A stretch of 64,000 bases of DNA from Escherichia phage phiSUSP1. A program made the translations under genes and the position numbers. The stretch lies in sequence record KT454805. One strand, written 5' to 3'. Shown piece by piece: positions 22,942 through 64,000 of this stretch; position 1 is the first letter of the stretch, and each line of letters begins with the position of its first letter. The notes beneath the pieces were generated by a model. That model saw only the letters and a program-made list of their open reading frames with translations, searched no databases and was not told where the DNA came from.

Positions 22942-23139
22942 ATGCCGACTATCCTAGCAATCCTCTTAAAAAACTTGGGTAGCTTCTTCTGGAAACTTCT
23001 ACTTTCCCTTCTGAGTGAATACATGATTGAGAAAGCCTTCTTCAGACTTGCAAGATACCTTGCGAGTAAGACAGATACGCCTATTGATGATGAATTTGTT
23101 AACAACTTGGAAAAAGCCTTTAAAGGGGAGAAAGAATGA
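22942..23139 (+). CDS. small hydrophobic protein (65 aa)
   Basis: ORF track; hydrophobic N-terminus ILAILLKNLGSFFWKLLLSLL. Confidence 0.35.
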   Translation: MPTILAILLKNLGSFFWKLLLSLLSEYMIEKAFFRLARYLASKTDTPIDDEFVNNLEKAFKGEKE

Positions 23140-23510
23140 AGTGGTTAGAGGATGCTTTCAAAAATAACATTGGTGCAATTGTTGTGGGTATCTTCAGTGT
23201 AATTGGTATGTACACTACAATGCAGGTGTCTAGTGGGAAGCAGGAAGTTTCCGTCTCAACAAAGTTACAACAGCTAGATAGTTACAACAAAAGCAACTAT
23301 TCAGCTATTCGTGATTTACAGTCTGACATGAAACTCCTGCAATTAGGCATGGAGAACCAGAAGGTTCAGCTAGAGAACGTAAAGGGTGAAAACGCCAAGT
23401 TGACAAAAACCCTTGATAAATTCTCTGACAGTGTTAATAACCTAGCACAGTCTGTATCAGCTTTGCAAGCAATCACTGAACAGAACACACAAAATGCTAA
23501 GAAGAAATAA
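23136..23510 (+). CDS. membrane-anchored coiled-coil protein (124 aa)
   Basis: N-terminal TM segment IGAIVVGIFSVIGMY then Q/L/K-rich helical region. Confidence 0.4.
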   Translation: MKWLEDAFKNNIGAIVVGIFSVIGMYTTMQVSSGKQEVSVSTKLQQLDSYNKSNYSAIRDLQSDMKLLQLGMENQKVQLENVKGENAKLTKTLDKFSDSVNNLAQSVSALQAITEQNTQNAKKK

Positions 23511-59834: not shown

Positions 59835-60956
59835 ATGACTACTAAGACTAAAGCACAAATCGACGCAGAAATCTACGCACTGGTTAAAGAAGGTAAACTG
59901 ACCAAAACTGCAATTGCTCTGAAGTACAATACTTCAACTCGTTCTGTAGGTCGTGCTGTAGAGCGTCATGAAGCAACTCTGCTGACAGGGAAAACCAAAG
60001 CAAAACCTGCAAAGACCCTGAAAGATATTGCAAAGGGTGCTAAGAAAGCTAAAGCAACTAAAAAGGTAGCTACCCAGAAACCTATTGCAAAAGCTGTTAA
60101 AGAGGCAGCCAAAGCAGAACCTGTAAATGCTCTGCACGAAGCGATGCAGAATAACAGCCAGATTGAGTACATGATTACTGGTGACTCGGTTATCATGACT
60201 TTCGGTGCAGAGTCAGAGATTGTTGAGTCAACTCACCCTAACTACACTGAAATTGTTATGGCTGTTGTATCAGGTGAGTACAAGAAAGCCTTTGAACTGA
60301 TGAACATTCGCAAATCCATTGAGAACTTCACTCAGGGTGCTGTGACCATTAAAGGTGATAACCTGTACTACGGTGCTGTTCAAATGCGTTCAACTCTGGT
60401 AGACCGTATTCTGGACATGATGAAGAAAGGCGATGAAGGCTTTACCCGTCTTATTGCATTCTTCGAAAAACTGATGGAAAACCCATCAAAAGATTCTGTA
60501 GAACAACTTTGGGGCTTTGTGTCACACCTCGATGTTGAAATTGATGAAGAAGGTTATATCATCGGTTGGAAGAAAGTCACAACTCGTAGTGGTAAACTGT
60601 TTGACTCTCGTACCTGCAAAGTGCCAAACGATTTGGGTAACATTGTTGAAATGCCACGTTGGATGGTTGATAATAACCGCCATGTAACATGCTCTCAAGG
60701 TCTACATGTTGGTGCTTGGGATTACGTAACTAGCTTCTCTGGTGACACTATCCTGAAAGTTCGTGTTCACCCTCGTGATGTTGTTTCAGTACCAACTGAC
60801 TACAACGATATGAAGATGCGAGCCTCTCGTTATGAAGTTGCAGCGATTGTAAATAGTCGCCGTGAAGTCATCAAAGAGTGGGATGGTTCAGAAGCACTCC
60901 ACGTAGTTGTAGGAACTGCTGGTGAACTGATTTCTCAGCGTAAACGTGAAGTCTAA
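59835..60956 (+). CDS. rIIB: rIIB-like protein (putative)
   Basis: 373 aa ORF directly downstream of the rIIA-like gene; no independent motif. Confidence 0.35.
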   Translation: MTTKTKAQIDAEIYALVKEGKLTKTAIALKYNTSTRSVGRAVERHEATLLTGKTKAKPAKTLKDIAKGAKKAKATKKVATQKPIAKAVKEAAKAEPVNALHEAMQNNSQIEYMITGDSVIMTFGAESEIVESTHPNYTEIVMAVVSGEYKKAFELMNIRKSIENFTQGAVTIKGDNLYYGAVQMRSTLVDRILDMMKKGDEGFTRLIAFFEKLMENPSKDSVEQLWGFVSHLDVEIDEEGYIIGWKKVTTRSGKLFDSRTCKVPNDLGNIVEMPRWMVDNNRHVTCSQGLHVGAWDYVTSFSGDTILKVRVHPRDVVSVPTDYNDMKMRASRYEVAAIVNSRREVIKEWDGSEALHVVVGTAGELISQRKREV

Positions 60957-61026: not shown

Positions 61027-61057
61027 TGTCTGCATGTTTAACAAAATAGGAGTGCAA

Positions 61058-61606
61058 ATGAAGAAATTTGTTTTAGGTTTGTGCTTATTCTTTACAGCAC
61101 ATTTAGCTACAGCATCTGACTGTCCAGAACTTACAATCAGCCAGAAAGTAAATATGTTAAAAGCATATAACTATGGCGAAGGACAGATGGGAAAAGGTTG
61201 GGGAATCCCTTTAGCAGCTATAGCCTTACAAGAGTCACAATTAGGTGTCATGTTAGAAAATAAAAGGACTCATGATTATGGTGTTTTCCAGAATCACTTG
61301 AAGACTGTTGTAAAGCGTAACAAAGTATCTCCAAAGGTTGCTAAGAAGAAGTTGGTAAGTGACTTCCATTACTCAGCAAAAGAGGCTCATAAAGAGTTGC
61401 TATTCTGGACAAAGGTTCACGGTAACCCAGATGGAAAGTACTCTATGAAGCGTGTCCTAGCTTCTTATAATGCTGGTTACAAATATAAGATTCCAAAGGC
61501 TAGACAATACTCTCAAGATGTGTACAATAACATGAAACTGCTTGCTCAATGTGAGTTTGCAACAAACATTAAAAAGGTAAAATATGAGCGAATCAAAACA
61601 ATTTGA
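61058..61606 (+). CDS. secreted lytic transglycosylase (SLT-domain, signal peptide)
   Basis: signal peptide MKKFVLGLCLFFTAHLATA; SLT-like motifs AIALQESQLG, GVFQ, ASYNAG; AGGAG RBS. Confidence 0.55.
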   Translation: MKKFVLGLCLFFTAHLATASDCPELTISQKVNMLKAYNYGEGQMGKGWGIPLAAIALQESQLGVMLENKRTHDYGVFQNHLKTVVKRNKVSPKVAKKKLVSDFHYSAKEAHKELLFWTKVHGNPDGKYSMKRVLASYNAGYKYKIPKARQYSQDVYNNMKLLAQCEFATNIKKVKYERIKTI

Positions 61607-62279
61607 TACGGTTCTGTGTCATGCTTATGATATCAAACCACTTGATTTAGATATCAGTTCTGCAAGCTGGTCAGACGTTGCTAAAGCTGACTTTGCAGAT
61701 ACAGCAAGATATGTTGCGTGTAGCTTTGAAGACTTTCATTCAACAAAGACACAGATTCCTTGTCAAGATTTGCTAACAGGTAAAACTGTGTATGTAGGTC
61801 GCAATAGTCTTATCTTGGTTGCAAAGAACTTGGAAGAAAAACGTAAGATGGTCTTAGCAGATATTGACGGTGTTCTTACAAGCTTTGATAAGAAACTTAA
61901 CGCAACCTTGTTAGATGATGGTACTTACTCACAGTACACTAACTTGGTAGACTCTCGCAGAGCTAAACCAACTTATGTTTTTAACATTCTGTGTGGTATA
62001 TCACAAAATGCTGATATAGGATTCTTAACTGCTCGTGGTGAATCTCAAAGAGTGGTCACTCACCTCTTCCTGAATGAAAATGTAGACAGTAACTTCTTAC
62101 TGTTTATGCGTGGATTTGGTGACAATGAAATTAGTGCAGAAAGTTTGAAAGTTCGTATGCTTCAGTCTTGCATTCTACCTTACTATGATGTAGTATGCTT
62201 TATAGAAGATACAGTAAAGAACGTGGCAAAGGTTGAAAGAATCTTACCACACATCAAAACAATGCTTGTTAAAAACTGA
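61584..62279 (+). CDS. HAD-like hydrolase domain protein (putative)
   Basis: motif-I-like LADIDGVLT; 231 aa. Confidence 0.35.
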   Translation: MSESKQFDTVLCHAYDIKPLDLDISSASWSDVAKADFADTARYVACSFEDFHSTKTQIPCQDLLTGKTVYVGRNSLILVAKNLEEKRKMVLADIDGVLTSFDKKLNATLLDDGTYSQYTNLVDSRRAKPTYVFNILCGISQNADIGFLTARGESQRVVTHLFLNENVDSNFLLFMRGFGDNEISAESLKVRMLQSCILPYYDVVCFIEDTVKNVAKVERILPHIKTMLVKN

Positions 62280-62290
62280 GAGAGTAAATC

Positions 62291-62755
62291 ATGCAAAACA
62301 TTATTACAGTAGCTATCGATGCTTCCGGTAACAAATCACAGGTAGTTCGTGAGATTATCAAGAATAACTTCGATGGTAAAATCTTTCGTGCAGTAAACGT
62401 GAAAGCTGATGGTAACATTCGTGAGTATCGTGCAATGTTGAATGTAACAAAACACGTTAAAGGTGTTGGCTCAACAACTGCACATAAAGAAAATCTGATG
62501 ACTATCTATGATATGGGTATGGCTTCAGAGTTAGGTGCAAAAGGTATTATACAATCCGGTGCTCCTTACCGTTCTTTCAATCTGGAAACTGCTCTTATGC
62601 TTTCCTTTACAAGTGGTTCTCAAACTACCACTTACCTCTTCACAGACTCTGCAACGGTGTCTGCGATTAAGGATAATACCATTAAGGCTGGCGTAGCTGC
62701 TGCTTCAAAAGCCTCAACAATGGCAGCAAATGTCCTTGCGAAAGTTCTTGGTTAA
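62291..62755 (+). CDS. hypothetical protein (154 aa)
   Basis: ORF track; good RBS. Confidence 0.4.
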   Translation: MQNIITVAIDASGNKSQVVREIIKNNFDGKIFRAVNVKADGNIREYRAMLNVTKHVKGVGSTTAHKENLMTIYDMGMASELGAKGIIQSGAPYRSFNLETALMLSFTSGSQTTTYLFTDSATVSAIKDNTIKAGVAAASKASTMAANVLAKVLG

Positions 62756-62765
62756 AGTTATTATA

Positions 62766-62790
62766 GAGGCTCCTACGGGAGCCTTTTTCA
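62766..62790 (+). terminator. intrinsic terminator
   Basis: GAGGCTCC-tacg-GGAGCCT followed by TTTTT. Confidence 0.75.
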
Positions 62791-62807
62791 TTTTTAGGAG
62801 AAGTTAA

Positions 62808-63155
62808 ATGACATTTAAAGAATTTTGTCAAGCAGCTTTTGTAATCATTTTCTTAATAGGTGTTGGTGCTTGGGGAGGTTACACTTACAAGACCAGCCAA
62901 GTTAATGAAAAGGAGTTAACTAACCAGAGACTTGTAAGTGTTGCTAAAGATGCTTATCAAGAAGGTTTATCAAATCTTAGCTCCAATTACAAAAATGATT
63001 TGAAAGATGTGCTTGCTAAAAACAAACACACAAAAGAGGTATTGAATTATGAAAAAACTAAGACAGTCTTTATTAATGATTGTGCTACTGAGCCTTATGT
63101 CAGGGTGTTCAACGAACAAAGTGAACAGTACCTTCAAAAACTCCCAAGTAAGTGA
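62808..63155 (+). CDS. i-spanin (Rz-like)
   Basis: N-terminal TM segment FVIIFLIGVGAWGGY then charged helical periplasmic region; o-spanin gene embedded at its 3' end. Confidence 0.5.
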   Translation: MTFKEFCQAAFVIIFLIGVGAWGGYTYKTSQVNEKELTNQRLVSVAKDAYQEGLSNLSSNYKNDLKDVLAKNKHTKEVLNYEKTKTVFINDCATEPYVRVFNEQSEQYLQKLPSK

Positions 63156-63318
63156 GAGTGACAAGTATACTCAAGAGGAAGCACGATATGAAGTCAAAAG
63201 CACTAAAGGTAAAGATATTGCAAGTGCTCTTGAGTTTTATCGTGACGGCTACTATGAGTGTACTATCAAGGCAAACAACTTGATTGATATGATTTTGTTA
63301 GGGAATAAGCAGCAATGA
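63049..63318 (+). CDS. o-spanin (Rz1-like outer-membrane lipoprotein)
   Basis: lipoprotein signal MKKLRQSLLMIVLLSLMSGC (lipobox LMSGC); starts inside the i-spanin gene in another frame and extends past its stop. Confidence 0.55.
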   Translation: MKKLRQSLLMIVLLSLMSGCSTNKVNSTFKNSQVSESDKYTQEEARYEVKSTKGKDIASALEFYRDGYYECTIKANNLIDMILLGNKQQ

Positions 63319-63584
63319 CAGAAAAGAATGAAACTTTTTTCGTGGAAGGTTACCTTCTGTTACCAAGACCAAATAACACCTACATGAGATTTGACATTAT
63401 GCCAACGGTTATGGATGATGTAACCTGTCACATCTTTATGCAAGGTGTTTCTGCACAACTTAAACATGTTGGAAGAGATTGCAAAATACGTGTTGACAAC
63501 CACCCTGAAATCAACGAGAATCACTACACATGGTTCGGGGAAGATTCTAAAGAAATCTACGCAGTTCTTAAAACGAGGAAATAA
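63315..63584 (+). CDS. hypothetical protein (89 aa)
   Basis: ORF track. Confidence 0.35.
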   Translation: MTEKNETFFVEGYLLLPRPNNTYMRFDIMPTVMDDVTCHIFMQGVSAQLKHVGRDCKIRVDNHPEINENHYTWFGEDSKEIYAVLKTRK

Positions 63585-63585
63585 C

Positions 63586-63747
63586 ATGGATAAGCAAGAG
63601 TTGCTTAAACTGATTGAAGAGTATGGTGATTCCCGTTACAATGAAGCTGGAGAAAGCTGTGTAGGTTCTATAGAGGCATTAACACTCTGGGAAGAATCCT
63701 CAGCAGCTTTACTTCAGCAGATTAAAGAGGTTATTGCAAATGGGTGA
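63586..63747 (+). CDS. small hypothetical protein (about 53 aa)
   Basis: in-frame ATG at 63586 with AGGAA RBS within ORF 63445..63747. Confidence 0.25.
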   Translation: MDKQELLKLIEEYGDSRYNEAGESCVGSIEALTLWEESSAALLQQIKEVIANG

Positions 63748-64000
63748 CTGTGCAGATGATGCAGACCGTTGGGCTGAACTCCAAGATTTAAGAGCAGAGT
63801 TTAGAGACCTCTTAGTGAGGTCTTCTAAAACAAATGTAGAGTATACACAAAAGGATTTTCCAAAGGCTCCTTTGTATGTTATACATCAAAACAATCTAAT
63901 GAACTCTGGATTAAGTTTGCAACAAAGGATGGACATTTGCCTAGCAAGGTATTACATTAATGTTGATGCCAAAGTTGGTGACTTGATTAAGTGTCCATGT
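63740..64000 (+). CDS. hypothetical protein, 3'-truncated at window edge
   Basis: ATG at 63740 overlapping the previous stop; frame open to end of window. Confidence 0.25.
   Translation, partial: MGDCADDADRWAELQDLRAEFRDLLVRSSKTNVEYTQKDFPKAPLYVIHQNNLMNSGLSLQQRMDICLARYYINVDAKVGDLIKCPC

Follow-up and report, generated by a model that had tools for sequence, protein, structure and literature searches.

The locus and its two genes

We analyzed two overlapping genes in a 64,000-nt stretch of phage DNA (hereafter, the window): one for a candidate inner spanin (i-spanin) and one for a candidate outer spanin (o-spanin). The features of the pair, all on the plus strand, were as follows:

62765..62786, plus strand: intrinsic-terminator hairpin, AGAGGCTCC-TACG-GGAGCCTTT, followed by a T run
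62796..62800, plus strand: Shine–Dalgarno sequence AGGAG of the i-spanin gene, 7 nt before the ATG
62808..63155, plus strand: candidate i-spanin gene, 348 nt, 115 aa
62823..62879, plus strand: N-terminal membrane span of i-spanin by hydropathy, residues ~6–24
Residues ~28–115 of i-spanin, plus strand: predicted periplasmic domain, ~88 residues
63035..63039, plus strand: Shine–Dalgarno-like sequence AGAGG of the o-spanin gene, within the i-spanin coding sequence, 9 nt before the ATG
63049..63318, plus strand: candidate o-spanin gene, 270 nt, 89 aa
63049..63155, plus strand: dual-coding overlap of 107 nt, i-spanin codons 81–115 (frame 0) and o-spanin codons 1–36 (+1 frame)
63049..63105, plus strand: o-spanin signal peptide, residues 1–19, N-terminus MKKLRQ-SLLMIVLLSLMSG-C
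63106..63108, plus strand: codon of the lipobox Cys20 (L-M-S-G-C), predicted acylation site

Both open reading frames were present exactly where the preliminary description had placed them. The i-spanin gene was recognized by its ORF, its hydropathy profile, and a match to PHROG 1152, "Rz-like spanin" (E-value of 4.2e-38). Its AGGAG, read from the sequence, is conserved in relatives, and a ribosome-binding site is annotated at the equivalent position in Citrobacter phage Michonne. Residues 6–24 (FCQAAFVIIFLIGVGAWGG) formed the best 19-residue window, with a Kyte–Doolittle value of 1.89; 11-residue windows reached 3.14, and no second hydrophobic stretch was detected in the protein by the Kyte–Doolittle scan. 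i-Spanin is small, with a single transmembrane domain (TMD) at the N-terminus, where one had been claimed earlier, and the remainder of the protein is predicted to be extracytoplasmic. This remainder ends in a conserved C-terminal motif, E82..F88-x-N90-x-C92..Y97..F101-N102..L112, in which Cys92 is invariant. The periplasmic domain had also been described as helical. An AlphaFold2 model built from a shallow alignment (mean pLDDT of 53.9, low confidence) agrees in placing helices at residues 39–56, 65–79, 82–92, and 95–111; this is a weak check and not proof, and the models of both proteins were taken as secondary-structure hints only.

The o-spanin gene was recognized by a lipoprotein signal and a match to phrog_4180 (E-value of 1.2e-47). 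The N-terminus of the protein comprises a basic n-region (MKKLRQ), a hydrophobic core, and the lipobox MIVLLSLMSGC; it fits the PROSITE-type lipoprotein pattern, with Cys20 followed by Ser and not Asp at position +2, and this bears out the lipoprotein with lipobox LMSGC proposed initially. Asp at +2 retains lipoproteins in the inner membrane under the Lol rule. A lipoprotein signal was found in only one of the 697 ORF candidates of the window (ATG-started, at least 40 aa, all six frames), namely that of o-spanin. The mature protein is hydrophilic and 70 residues long; it lacks proline altogether, and its only cysteine besides Cys20 is Cys71. Its AlphaFold2 model, also from a shallow alignment and of low to moderate confidence (mean pLDDT of 58.8), consists of the signal-peptide helix, a disordered linker at residues 19–40, and a long helix at 54–85 bearing Cys71. 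The highest 11-residue hydropathy near the C-terminus was 1.2; an 89-aa lipoprotein lacking a C-terminal hydrophobic span does not belong to the unimolecular spanins of the T1 gp11 type.

The motif AAAGAGG, which includes the o-spanin Shine–Dalgarno-like sequence, was invariant in 29 of 29 sequences compared (the window and loci L009–L036). By its sequence, o-spanin is translated in the +1 frame from a ribosome-binding site of its own, inside the last third of the i-spanin gene.

Scans of both proteins against Pfam and NCBIfam gave nothing above threshold: even with the limit set at E ≤ 1, i-spanin matched no Pfam family, and o-spanin had weak lipoprotein-signal matches and one sub-threshold unrelated Pfam match. 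Solved structures searched with profiles of both family alignments yielded no meaningful match.

The genes and signals around the pair, together with the holin candidate, were as follows:

23136..23510: putative holin gene, just after the tail fibre gene, 39 kb upstream of the pair
59835..60956: rIIB, upstream of the pair
Between rIIB and the gene at 61058..61606: a terminator and a promoter-like site
61058..61606: gene for a secreted lysozyme/SLT-like protein, 1.2 kb upstream of the pair
61584..62279: HAD-type polynucleotide-kinase-like gene, upstream of the pair
62291..62755: gene for a 154-aa protein without known function, upstream of the pair
63315..63584: next gene downstream, its ATG overlapping the o-spanin stop codon (ATGA, 63315..63318)

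The hairpin at 62765..62786, found by a terminator scan, lies directly upstream of the i-spanin ribosome-binding site, 10 nt before it. The hairpin is retained by 28 of 30 Moogle/Felix-type sequences and is an annotated terminator in Michonne. The same scan revealed no terminator between 63318 and 64000. The sole result of a promoter scan was a weak sigma-70-like site (62736..62764, 9/12) that overlaps the preceding gene at its end; since Felix O1-type sequences do not clearly conserve it, it was set aside as a promoter.

Relatives, conservation, and a probable spanin assignment

The 3.1 kb around the pair were 94–98% identical to genomes of Mooglevirus (Ounavirinae), which included Citrobacter phages vB_CbrM_HP1, Michonne, Mordin, and Maleficent and Shigella phages Sf13, Sf14, Sf17, KPS64, and ESh19. 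The same region was 60–80% identical to about 200 Felix O1-like genomes. By this similarity, the window can be assigned to a Mooglevirus-like member of Ounavirinae, a Felix O1-like virulent myophage of enterobacteria. The hosts named in the records of its relatives are mainly Citrobacter, Shigella, Escherichia, Salmonella, and Erwinia, all of them Gram-negative, which by inference supports the Gram-negative host proposed at the outset.

In the genome of Michonne (KT001916), the equivalents of the two genes were annotated by the Center for Phage Technology as i-spanin (AKU44088, 348 nt) and o-spanin (AKU44087, 270 nt), each with a ribosome-binding site and with a terminator just upstream. Michonne and Felix O1 both share with our pair the gene lengths of 348 and 270 nt, the 107-nt overlap in the +1 frame, and the terminator upstream. 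i-Spanin was 99.1% identical to that of Michonne and 76.5% identical to ORF20 of Felix O1; for residues 19–89 of o-spanin, the respective values were 94.4% and 84.5% (ORF21). Apart from a few amino acid substitutions, we found no difference of substance from the JH2 pair of Felix O1 and Moogle.

Homologues of i-spanin and o-spanin were found by tblastn in 319 and 298 phage records, respectively. Many of these are labelled as spanins, and Michonne, Sf14, and HP1 are among the phages in which the names i-spanin and o-spanin are used. In their spanin census, Kongari et al. (2018) place Felix01, Moogle, Mushroom, WV8, and others in the "JH2" i-spanin and o-spanin families, and Felix01, FO1a, and UAB_phi87 in the overlapped class (PMC6139136). 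The similarity of our pair to PHROG 1152, phrog_4180, and Felix O1 ORF20/ORF21 is significant and places it in the JH2 families. Inner and outer spanin genes are also named in the genome papers of Michonne and Moogle (PMC4319497 for the latter). Since the pair is annotated in Michonne, listed in the census, and named in genome papers, its finding here is the rediscovery of a catalogued feature, correct but ordinary.

The family extends well beyond these phages. A scan of IMG/VR combining the pattern with tblastn of the i-spanin alignment gave 80 loci. Felix/Moogle-type sequences accounted for 28 of them; the rest, at 25–49% identity, came from ~76-kb Kuravirus-type podophage genomes, other contigs of ~85–90 kb, and many contigs of mostly ~30 kb. 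The record of a relative of the ~30-kb contigs, Yersinia phage vB_YenM_324 (29 kb), annotates an I-spanin and an O-spanin. A lipoprotein ORF overlapping in the +1 frame accompanied the i-spanin relative in all 80 loci: 69 were found by an automatic filter, and the other 11, which the filter had missed only because lipobox position –4 is Asn or the start codon is not ATG, were confirmed when the frames were read. The overlaps ranged from 107 to 191 nt and were +1 in every case. The same architecture was read directly in Felix O1, Erwinia phage vEam_W_25, Yersinia phage P778, and Kuravirus XT18, and it also occurs in Kolesnikvirus.

Residues G24, L65, E82, F88, N90, C92, Y97, F101, N102, and L112 were invariant among 61 unique relatives of i-spanin, most of them in the C-terminal third, i.e., in the overlapped part. 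Among 55 unique relatives of o-spanin, the invariant residues were C20, S21, G54, C71, N76, and L78. In the overlap, the most conserved part of i-spanin thus shares its DNA with the mutation-tolerant part of o-spanin, namely its signal peptide and flexible linker. Both periplasmic cysteines, Cys92 of i-spanin and Cys71 of o-spanin, are among the invariant residues; at least one periplasmic cysteine occurs in 507 of 528 catalogued spanin systems (PMC6139136). o-Spanins of the Felix/Moogle branch contain no proline and a single periplasmic cysteine, and the distant members of the family contain 3–9 prolines and two cysteines. This is a small oddity, accommodated by the general remarks of the census on spanin diversity (PMC6139136).

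Measured against the criteria for two-component spanins of Summer et al. (2007) and Kongari et al. (2018), the pair bears every hallmark of the overlapped type that can be read at the sequence level. Very probably, the products of the two genes form a two-component spanin, overlapped in its gene architecture, of a Felix O1-like (Mooglevirus-type) phage. The points against this reading are the lack of homology to the prototypes, the proline-free o-spanin, the absence of an adjoining holin or endolysin, the terminator directly before the pair, the lack of a clear promoter, and the low confidence of the structure models.

Some of these points would suit an inner-membrane protein and a lipoprotein with a function in the envelope other than outer-membrane disruption, such as superinfection exclusion or receptor masking (as with the phage lipoproteins T5 Llp or Cor). 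The location, next to rIIB, a polynucleotide-kinase-like gene, and small unknowns, is unlike a lysis cassette; phrog_4180 carries no functional label, and the proteins have no homology to tested spanins. We found no published functional test of the Felix O1/Moogle spanin family in the literature, and a comparative paper calls for further studies (PMC8300805). However, the TMD protein and its +1 lipoprotein were strictly coupled at 80 of 80 loci, in myophages, podophages, and ~30-kb contigs. Such coupling is the signature of spanins and, to our knowledge, does not occur with exclusion lipoproteins. Moreover, there is no other spanin candidate: the lipoprotein signal of o-spanin is the only one of the window, and the examined stretches of the Michonne and Sf14 records name no other spanin. 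As to location, T4 has genuine spanins away from its holin and endolysin and beside its polynucleotide kinase gene, and in Yersinia phage P778 the pair follows immediately after the endolysin gene. We consider another envelope function improbable.

Lysis context and coding overlap

The preliminary description took the pair to mark the end of the lysis module; the gene map contradicts this. No holin or canonical endolysin adjoins the pair, and the pair ends no unit. A single putative holin occurs in the window, at 23136..23510, and PHROG gives it no function. No match within the window was obtained for the GH24 lysozyme of the relatives, which the Sf14 record labels as lysin. According to the Moogle genome paper, Felix O1-like phages have their lysis genes dispersed, with no cassette (PMC4319497).

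The pair could still be thought to close a contiguous cassette in which the product of the gene at 61058..61606 is the endolysin: this secreted protein, encoded 1.2 kb upstream, matches Pfam SLT with an E-value of 0.0023 and is called a "putative lysin" in HP1, and rIIA and rIIB are called "lysis inhibitor" in some records. But the SLT match is below the Pfam threshold (17.9 vs. 21.3 bits), and the PHROG of the protein is without assigned function. Two unrelated genes and a terminator separate its gene from the spanins, and neither a holin nor an endolysin is encoded immediately upstream of the pair. The recognized endolysin of the group is the GH24 lysozyme, encoded elsewhere; the putative holin lies 39 kb away; and the literature on the group describes scattered lysis genes (PMC4319497). 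Finally, the o-spanin gene is translationally abutted to a further gene; hence, nothing ends here. A cassette of this kind is very improbable.

The overlapped architecture itself was found as initially described. The o-spanin ORF begins within the 3' part of the i-spanin gene, in the +1 frame relative to it, shares 107 nt with it, and extends 163 nt beyond its stop codon. We analyzed nucleotide diversity by codon position in 28 unique 511-nt locus sequences of Moogle/Felix O1-type phages. In the part encoding i-spanin only, diversity at position 3 was 0.226 vs. 0.080 and 0.056 at positions 1 and 2; in the part encoding o-spanin only, read in the o-spanin frame, it was 0.322 vs. 0.083 and 0.052. 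Within the overlap, diversity was low and flat (0.059, 0.044, and 0.061 by phase, with a mean of 0.054), with no wobble peak. Such a pattern is the signature expected of two proteins encoded by one DNA; selection acts on both frames.

The +1 frame was open in all 28 unique sequences. This openness means little alone because 78% of synonymous recodings of i-spanin, simulated with the codon usage of the window, kept the +1 frame open across the overlap, and we dropped it as stand-alone evidence. Only 0.46% of the recodings also bore a lipobox-like pentapeptide. Decisive instead are conservation and the dual-coding constraint taken together. A chance open frame at +1, with the 115-aa protein as the only product, would fit the frequent openness of recodings and the frequent omission or truncation of the o-spanin ORF by gene callers, but it is already refuted at the level of comparative evidence and retains practically no probability, given the move of the wobble to the +1 frame past the i-spanin stop, the suppression of diversity at all three phases within the overlap, the lipobox Cys and Ser +2 invariant in 55 unique sequences, the conserved internal ribosome-binding site AAAGAGG, and the lipoprotein ORF in 80 of 80 loci.

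Proposed function and comparison with known spanins

If the pair is a two-component spanin, i-spanin would be anchored in the inner membrane in the N-in/C-out orientation, by analogy with the lambda Rz/Rz1 model (PMC6139136). o-Spanin would be acylated at Cys20 and sorted by the Lol system to the inner leaflet of the outer membrane. Binding of the C-terminal regions of the two proteins would give a complex that spans the periplasm, threaded through the peptidoglycan mesh; the ~88 periplasmic residues of i-spanin and the 70 of o-spanin should be ample to bridge ~25 nm of periplasm. Once the peptidoglycan has been destroyed by holin-triggered action of the endolysin, both proteins having their genes elsewhere in this genome, the freed complexes would collapse and fuse the inner and outer membranes, removing the last barrier to release. 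Cys92 of i-spanin and Cys71 of o-spanin are probably engaged in intermolecular disulfides that depend on Dsb; spanin function in lambda and T4 requires such intermolecular bonds (PMC6139136).

A variant of this mechanism can be considered for the JH2 branch. Compared with the distant members of the family, its o-spanin has lost all prolines and one of two cysteines, and it is predicted to consist of a flexible tether and a long C-terminal helix. Since the Felix/Moogle o-spanin is proline-free, with this predicted tether and helix, fusion by a helix–helix bundle is possible: the C-terminal motif of i-spanin might bundle with the o-spanin helix, which would replace the proline-rich fusion segment, and a heterotypic Cys92–Cys71 disulfide would possibly act as the lock of the bundle. 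Separately, the conserved terminator before the i-spanin ribosome-binding site might gate the dosage or timing of the spanins via read-through. We regard the helix-bundle variant and the terminator gating as tentative and rather unlikely.

The pair matters mainly for annotation. It confirms a phage of a Gram-negative host, places the outer-membrane step of lysis in the genome, and offers a clean worked example of a dual-coding region of the kind still mishandled by gene callers. In the HP1 record, the o-spanin start is placed after the lipobox; many metagenomic calls start o-spanin at Met17, and in some records one partner is missing. The pair delimits no lysis cassette and therefore cannot be used to infer the function of neighboring genes.

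We compared the two proteins with lambda Rz/Rz1, P2 LysB/LysC, and T4 PseT.3/PseT.2 using hhalign and blastp; the blastp E-values came from a six-sequence database and are not meaningful. No convincing homology to these prototypes was found by hhalign: the probabilities were 0.2% and 1.6% for lambda Rz and Rz1, 0.5% and 8.9% for T4 PseT.3 and PseT.2, and 1.5% and 16% for P2 LysB and LysC, the last being the best. With these values for Rz and Rz1 and Pfam matches below the cut-off, the pair does not belong to the lambda Rz/Rz1 sequence family.

The P2 genes LysB/LysC are also overlapped, and LysC has a faint profile similarity to the o-spanin family over 56 columns, though at a probability of 16% homology is not established. 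Unlike our pair, the P2 genes follow the holin, endolysin, and lysA in a cassette.

T4 resembles our phage in its gene map. The PseT.3/PseT.2 genes are far from the holin (t) and endolysin (e) genes and lie no more than two genes away from one for polynucleotide kinase (pseT in T4, the kinase-like gene at 61584..62279 here), and the proteins are of similar size (recorded as 117 and 99 aa). As in our pair, the o-spanin of T4 is without a proline-rich region, and a helix is predicted at its C-terminus (PMC6139136). However, the T4 spanin genes are of the separated class and lie upstream of pseT, whereas those described here are overlapped and downstream of the kinase-like gene. The T4 i-spanin has no periplasmic cysteine and the o-spanin has two (PMC6139136), in contrast to one per subunit here.

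With lambda, our pair shares the general plan: an inner-membrane protein whose TMD is N-terminal and whose periplasmic part is predicted to be helical, an outer-membrane lipoprotein encoded in the +1 frame from within its gene, and periplasmic cysteines in both subunits. The differences concern the arrangement and the o-spanin. Rz1 is fully embedded in Rz, whereas here the genes are overlapped and o-spanin runs 163 nt past the i-spanin stop; the lambda pair ends the S-R-Rz cassette, and the pair here is in no cassette. Mature Rz1 has 40 residues, 10 of them prolines, with no structure, and its proline-rich region is the mutationally sensitive element (PMC6139136); in contrast, the mature o-spanin described here has 70 residues, no proline, and a predicted C-terminal helix. 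By inference, the pair would work like lambda Rz/Rz1 without being its detectable sequence relative.

Transcription and translation of the spanin pair

The i-spanin gene is preceded, and the o-spanin gene followed, by the following features:

62765..62786, + strand, intrinsic-terminator hairpin, ending about 10 nt 5' of the i-spanin ribosome-binding site
63315..63584, + strand, 89-aa gene assigned to phrog_4391 (E 2e-58), starting on the o-spanin stop codon (ATGA)

The hairpin was conserved in 28 of the 30 Moogle/Felix-type sequences, including L035, a locus with a different upstream gene. No convincing promoter was found between this terminator and the i-spanin ATG; the pair may therefore be transcribed by read-through of the terminator. 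The ATGA overlap of the o-spanin stop codon with the start of 63315..63584 suggests that this gene is translationally coupled to the pair.

Similarity of the window to Michonne, HP1, and Sf14-type genomes ended at about 63728-63734, and only Shigella phage ESh19 aligned through to 64000. Judging from these alignments, about 63730..64000 looks like a mosaic junction amid small genes without assigned function.

Annotation of the pair in public records

The o-spanin start was frequently mis-called in public annotation (HP1, Kuravirus XT18, and metagenomic proteins P0020-P0037). In the record of Citrobacter phage HP1 (L002, 5221..5418), it was placed 3' of the lipobox; many metagenomic calls began at Met17 ('MSGC...', 73 aa) or further in (68 aa), and the o-spanin of Kuravirus XT18 (L008, 2796..2969) was called as 57 aa only. 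In Yersinia phage P778 (L006, 2209..2574), no i-spanin CDS was annotated. These start errors and the missing CDS are the gene-calling bias against overlapping genes set out in the spanin census (Kongari et al. 2018, PMC6139136).

Other possibly lysis-related genes

Three further genes of the window were analyzed:

61058..61606, + strand (another possible ATG start lies further 5', at 61034), secreted protein weakly matching lysozyme/SLT-like sequences
22942..23139, + strand, 65-aa membrane ORF preceding the putative holin gene, its stop region overlapping the holin start
23136..23510, + strand, putative holin with a single TMD, sharing 92.8% identity with the protein that Michonne and Sf14 annotate as 'putative holin'

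The secreted protein, with the signal peptide MKKFVLGLCLFFTAHLATA, was encoded between rIIB and a polynucleotide-kinase-like gene. Its match to Pfam SLT was sub-threshold (17.9 bits; cut-off 21.3), it fell into PHROG 600, which has no assigned function, and a PDB sequence search gave no match. Its counterparts were labelled 'putative lysin' in HP1 and 'lysozyme-like domain' in Michonne; the Felix O1 record compares its counterpart to a 20.7-kDa protein encoded in the vs-regB region of T4. This product was rejected as the endolysin of the group, which is a different protein (GH24).

The putative holin gene comes after the tail-fibre gene. PHROGs give no function to either its product or the preceding membrane ORF, so the holin label is only putative.

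Distant relatives and comparison with T4

Distant relatives of the pair (IMG/VR loci L037-L088), with i-spanin identities of 25–49%, were located on many contigs, mostly of about 30 kb, to which the 29-kb Yersinia phage vB_YenM_324 is related; they were also present in Kuravirus podophages. The distant o-spanins have 3–9 prolines and two periplasmic cysteines; those of the Felix/Moogle branch have no prolines and one cysteine. LysC of P2 showed faint profile similarity to the o-spanin family (hhalign 16%).

In both T4 (L091, 134002..135781) and the window (61584..63318), the spanin genes lie no more than two genes from a polynucleotide kinase/phosphatase gene and distant from holin and endolysin. 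The order differs: spanins, pseT.1, and pseT in T4, whereas in the window the polynucleotide-kinase-like gene and one unassigned gene precede the spanins.
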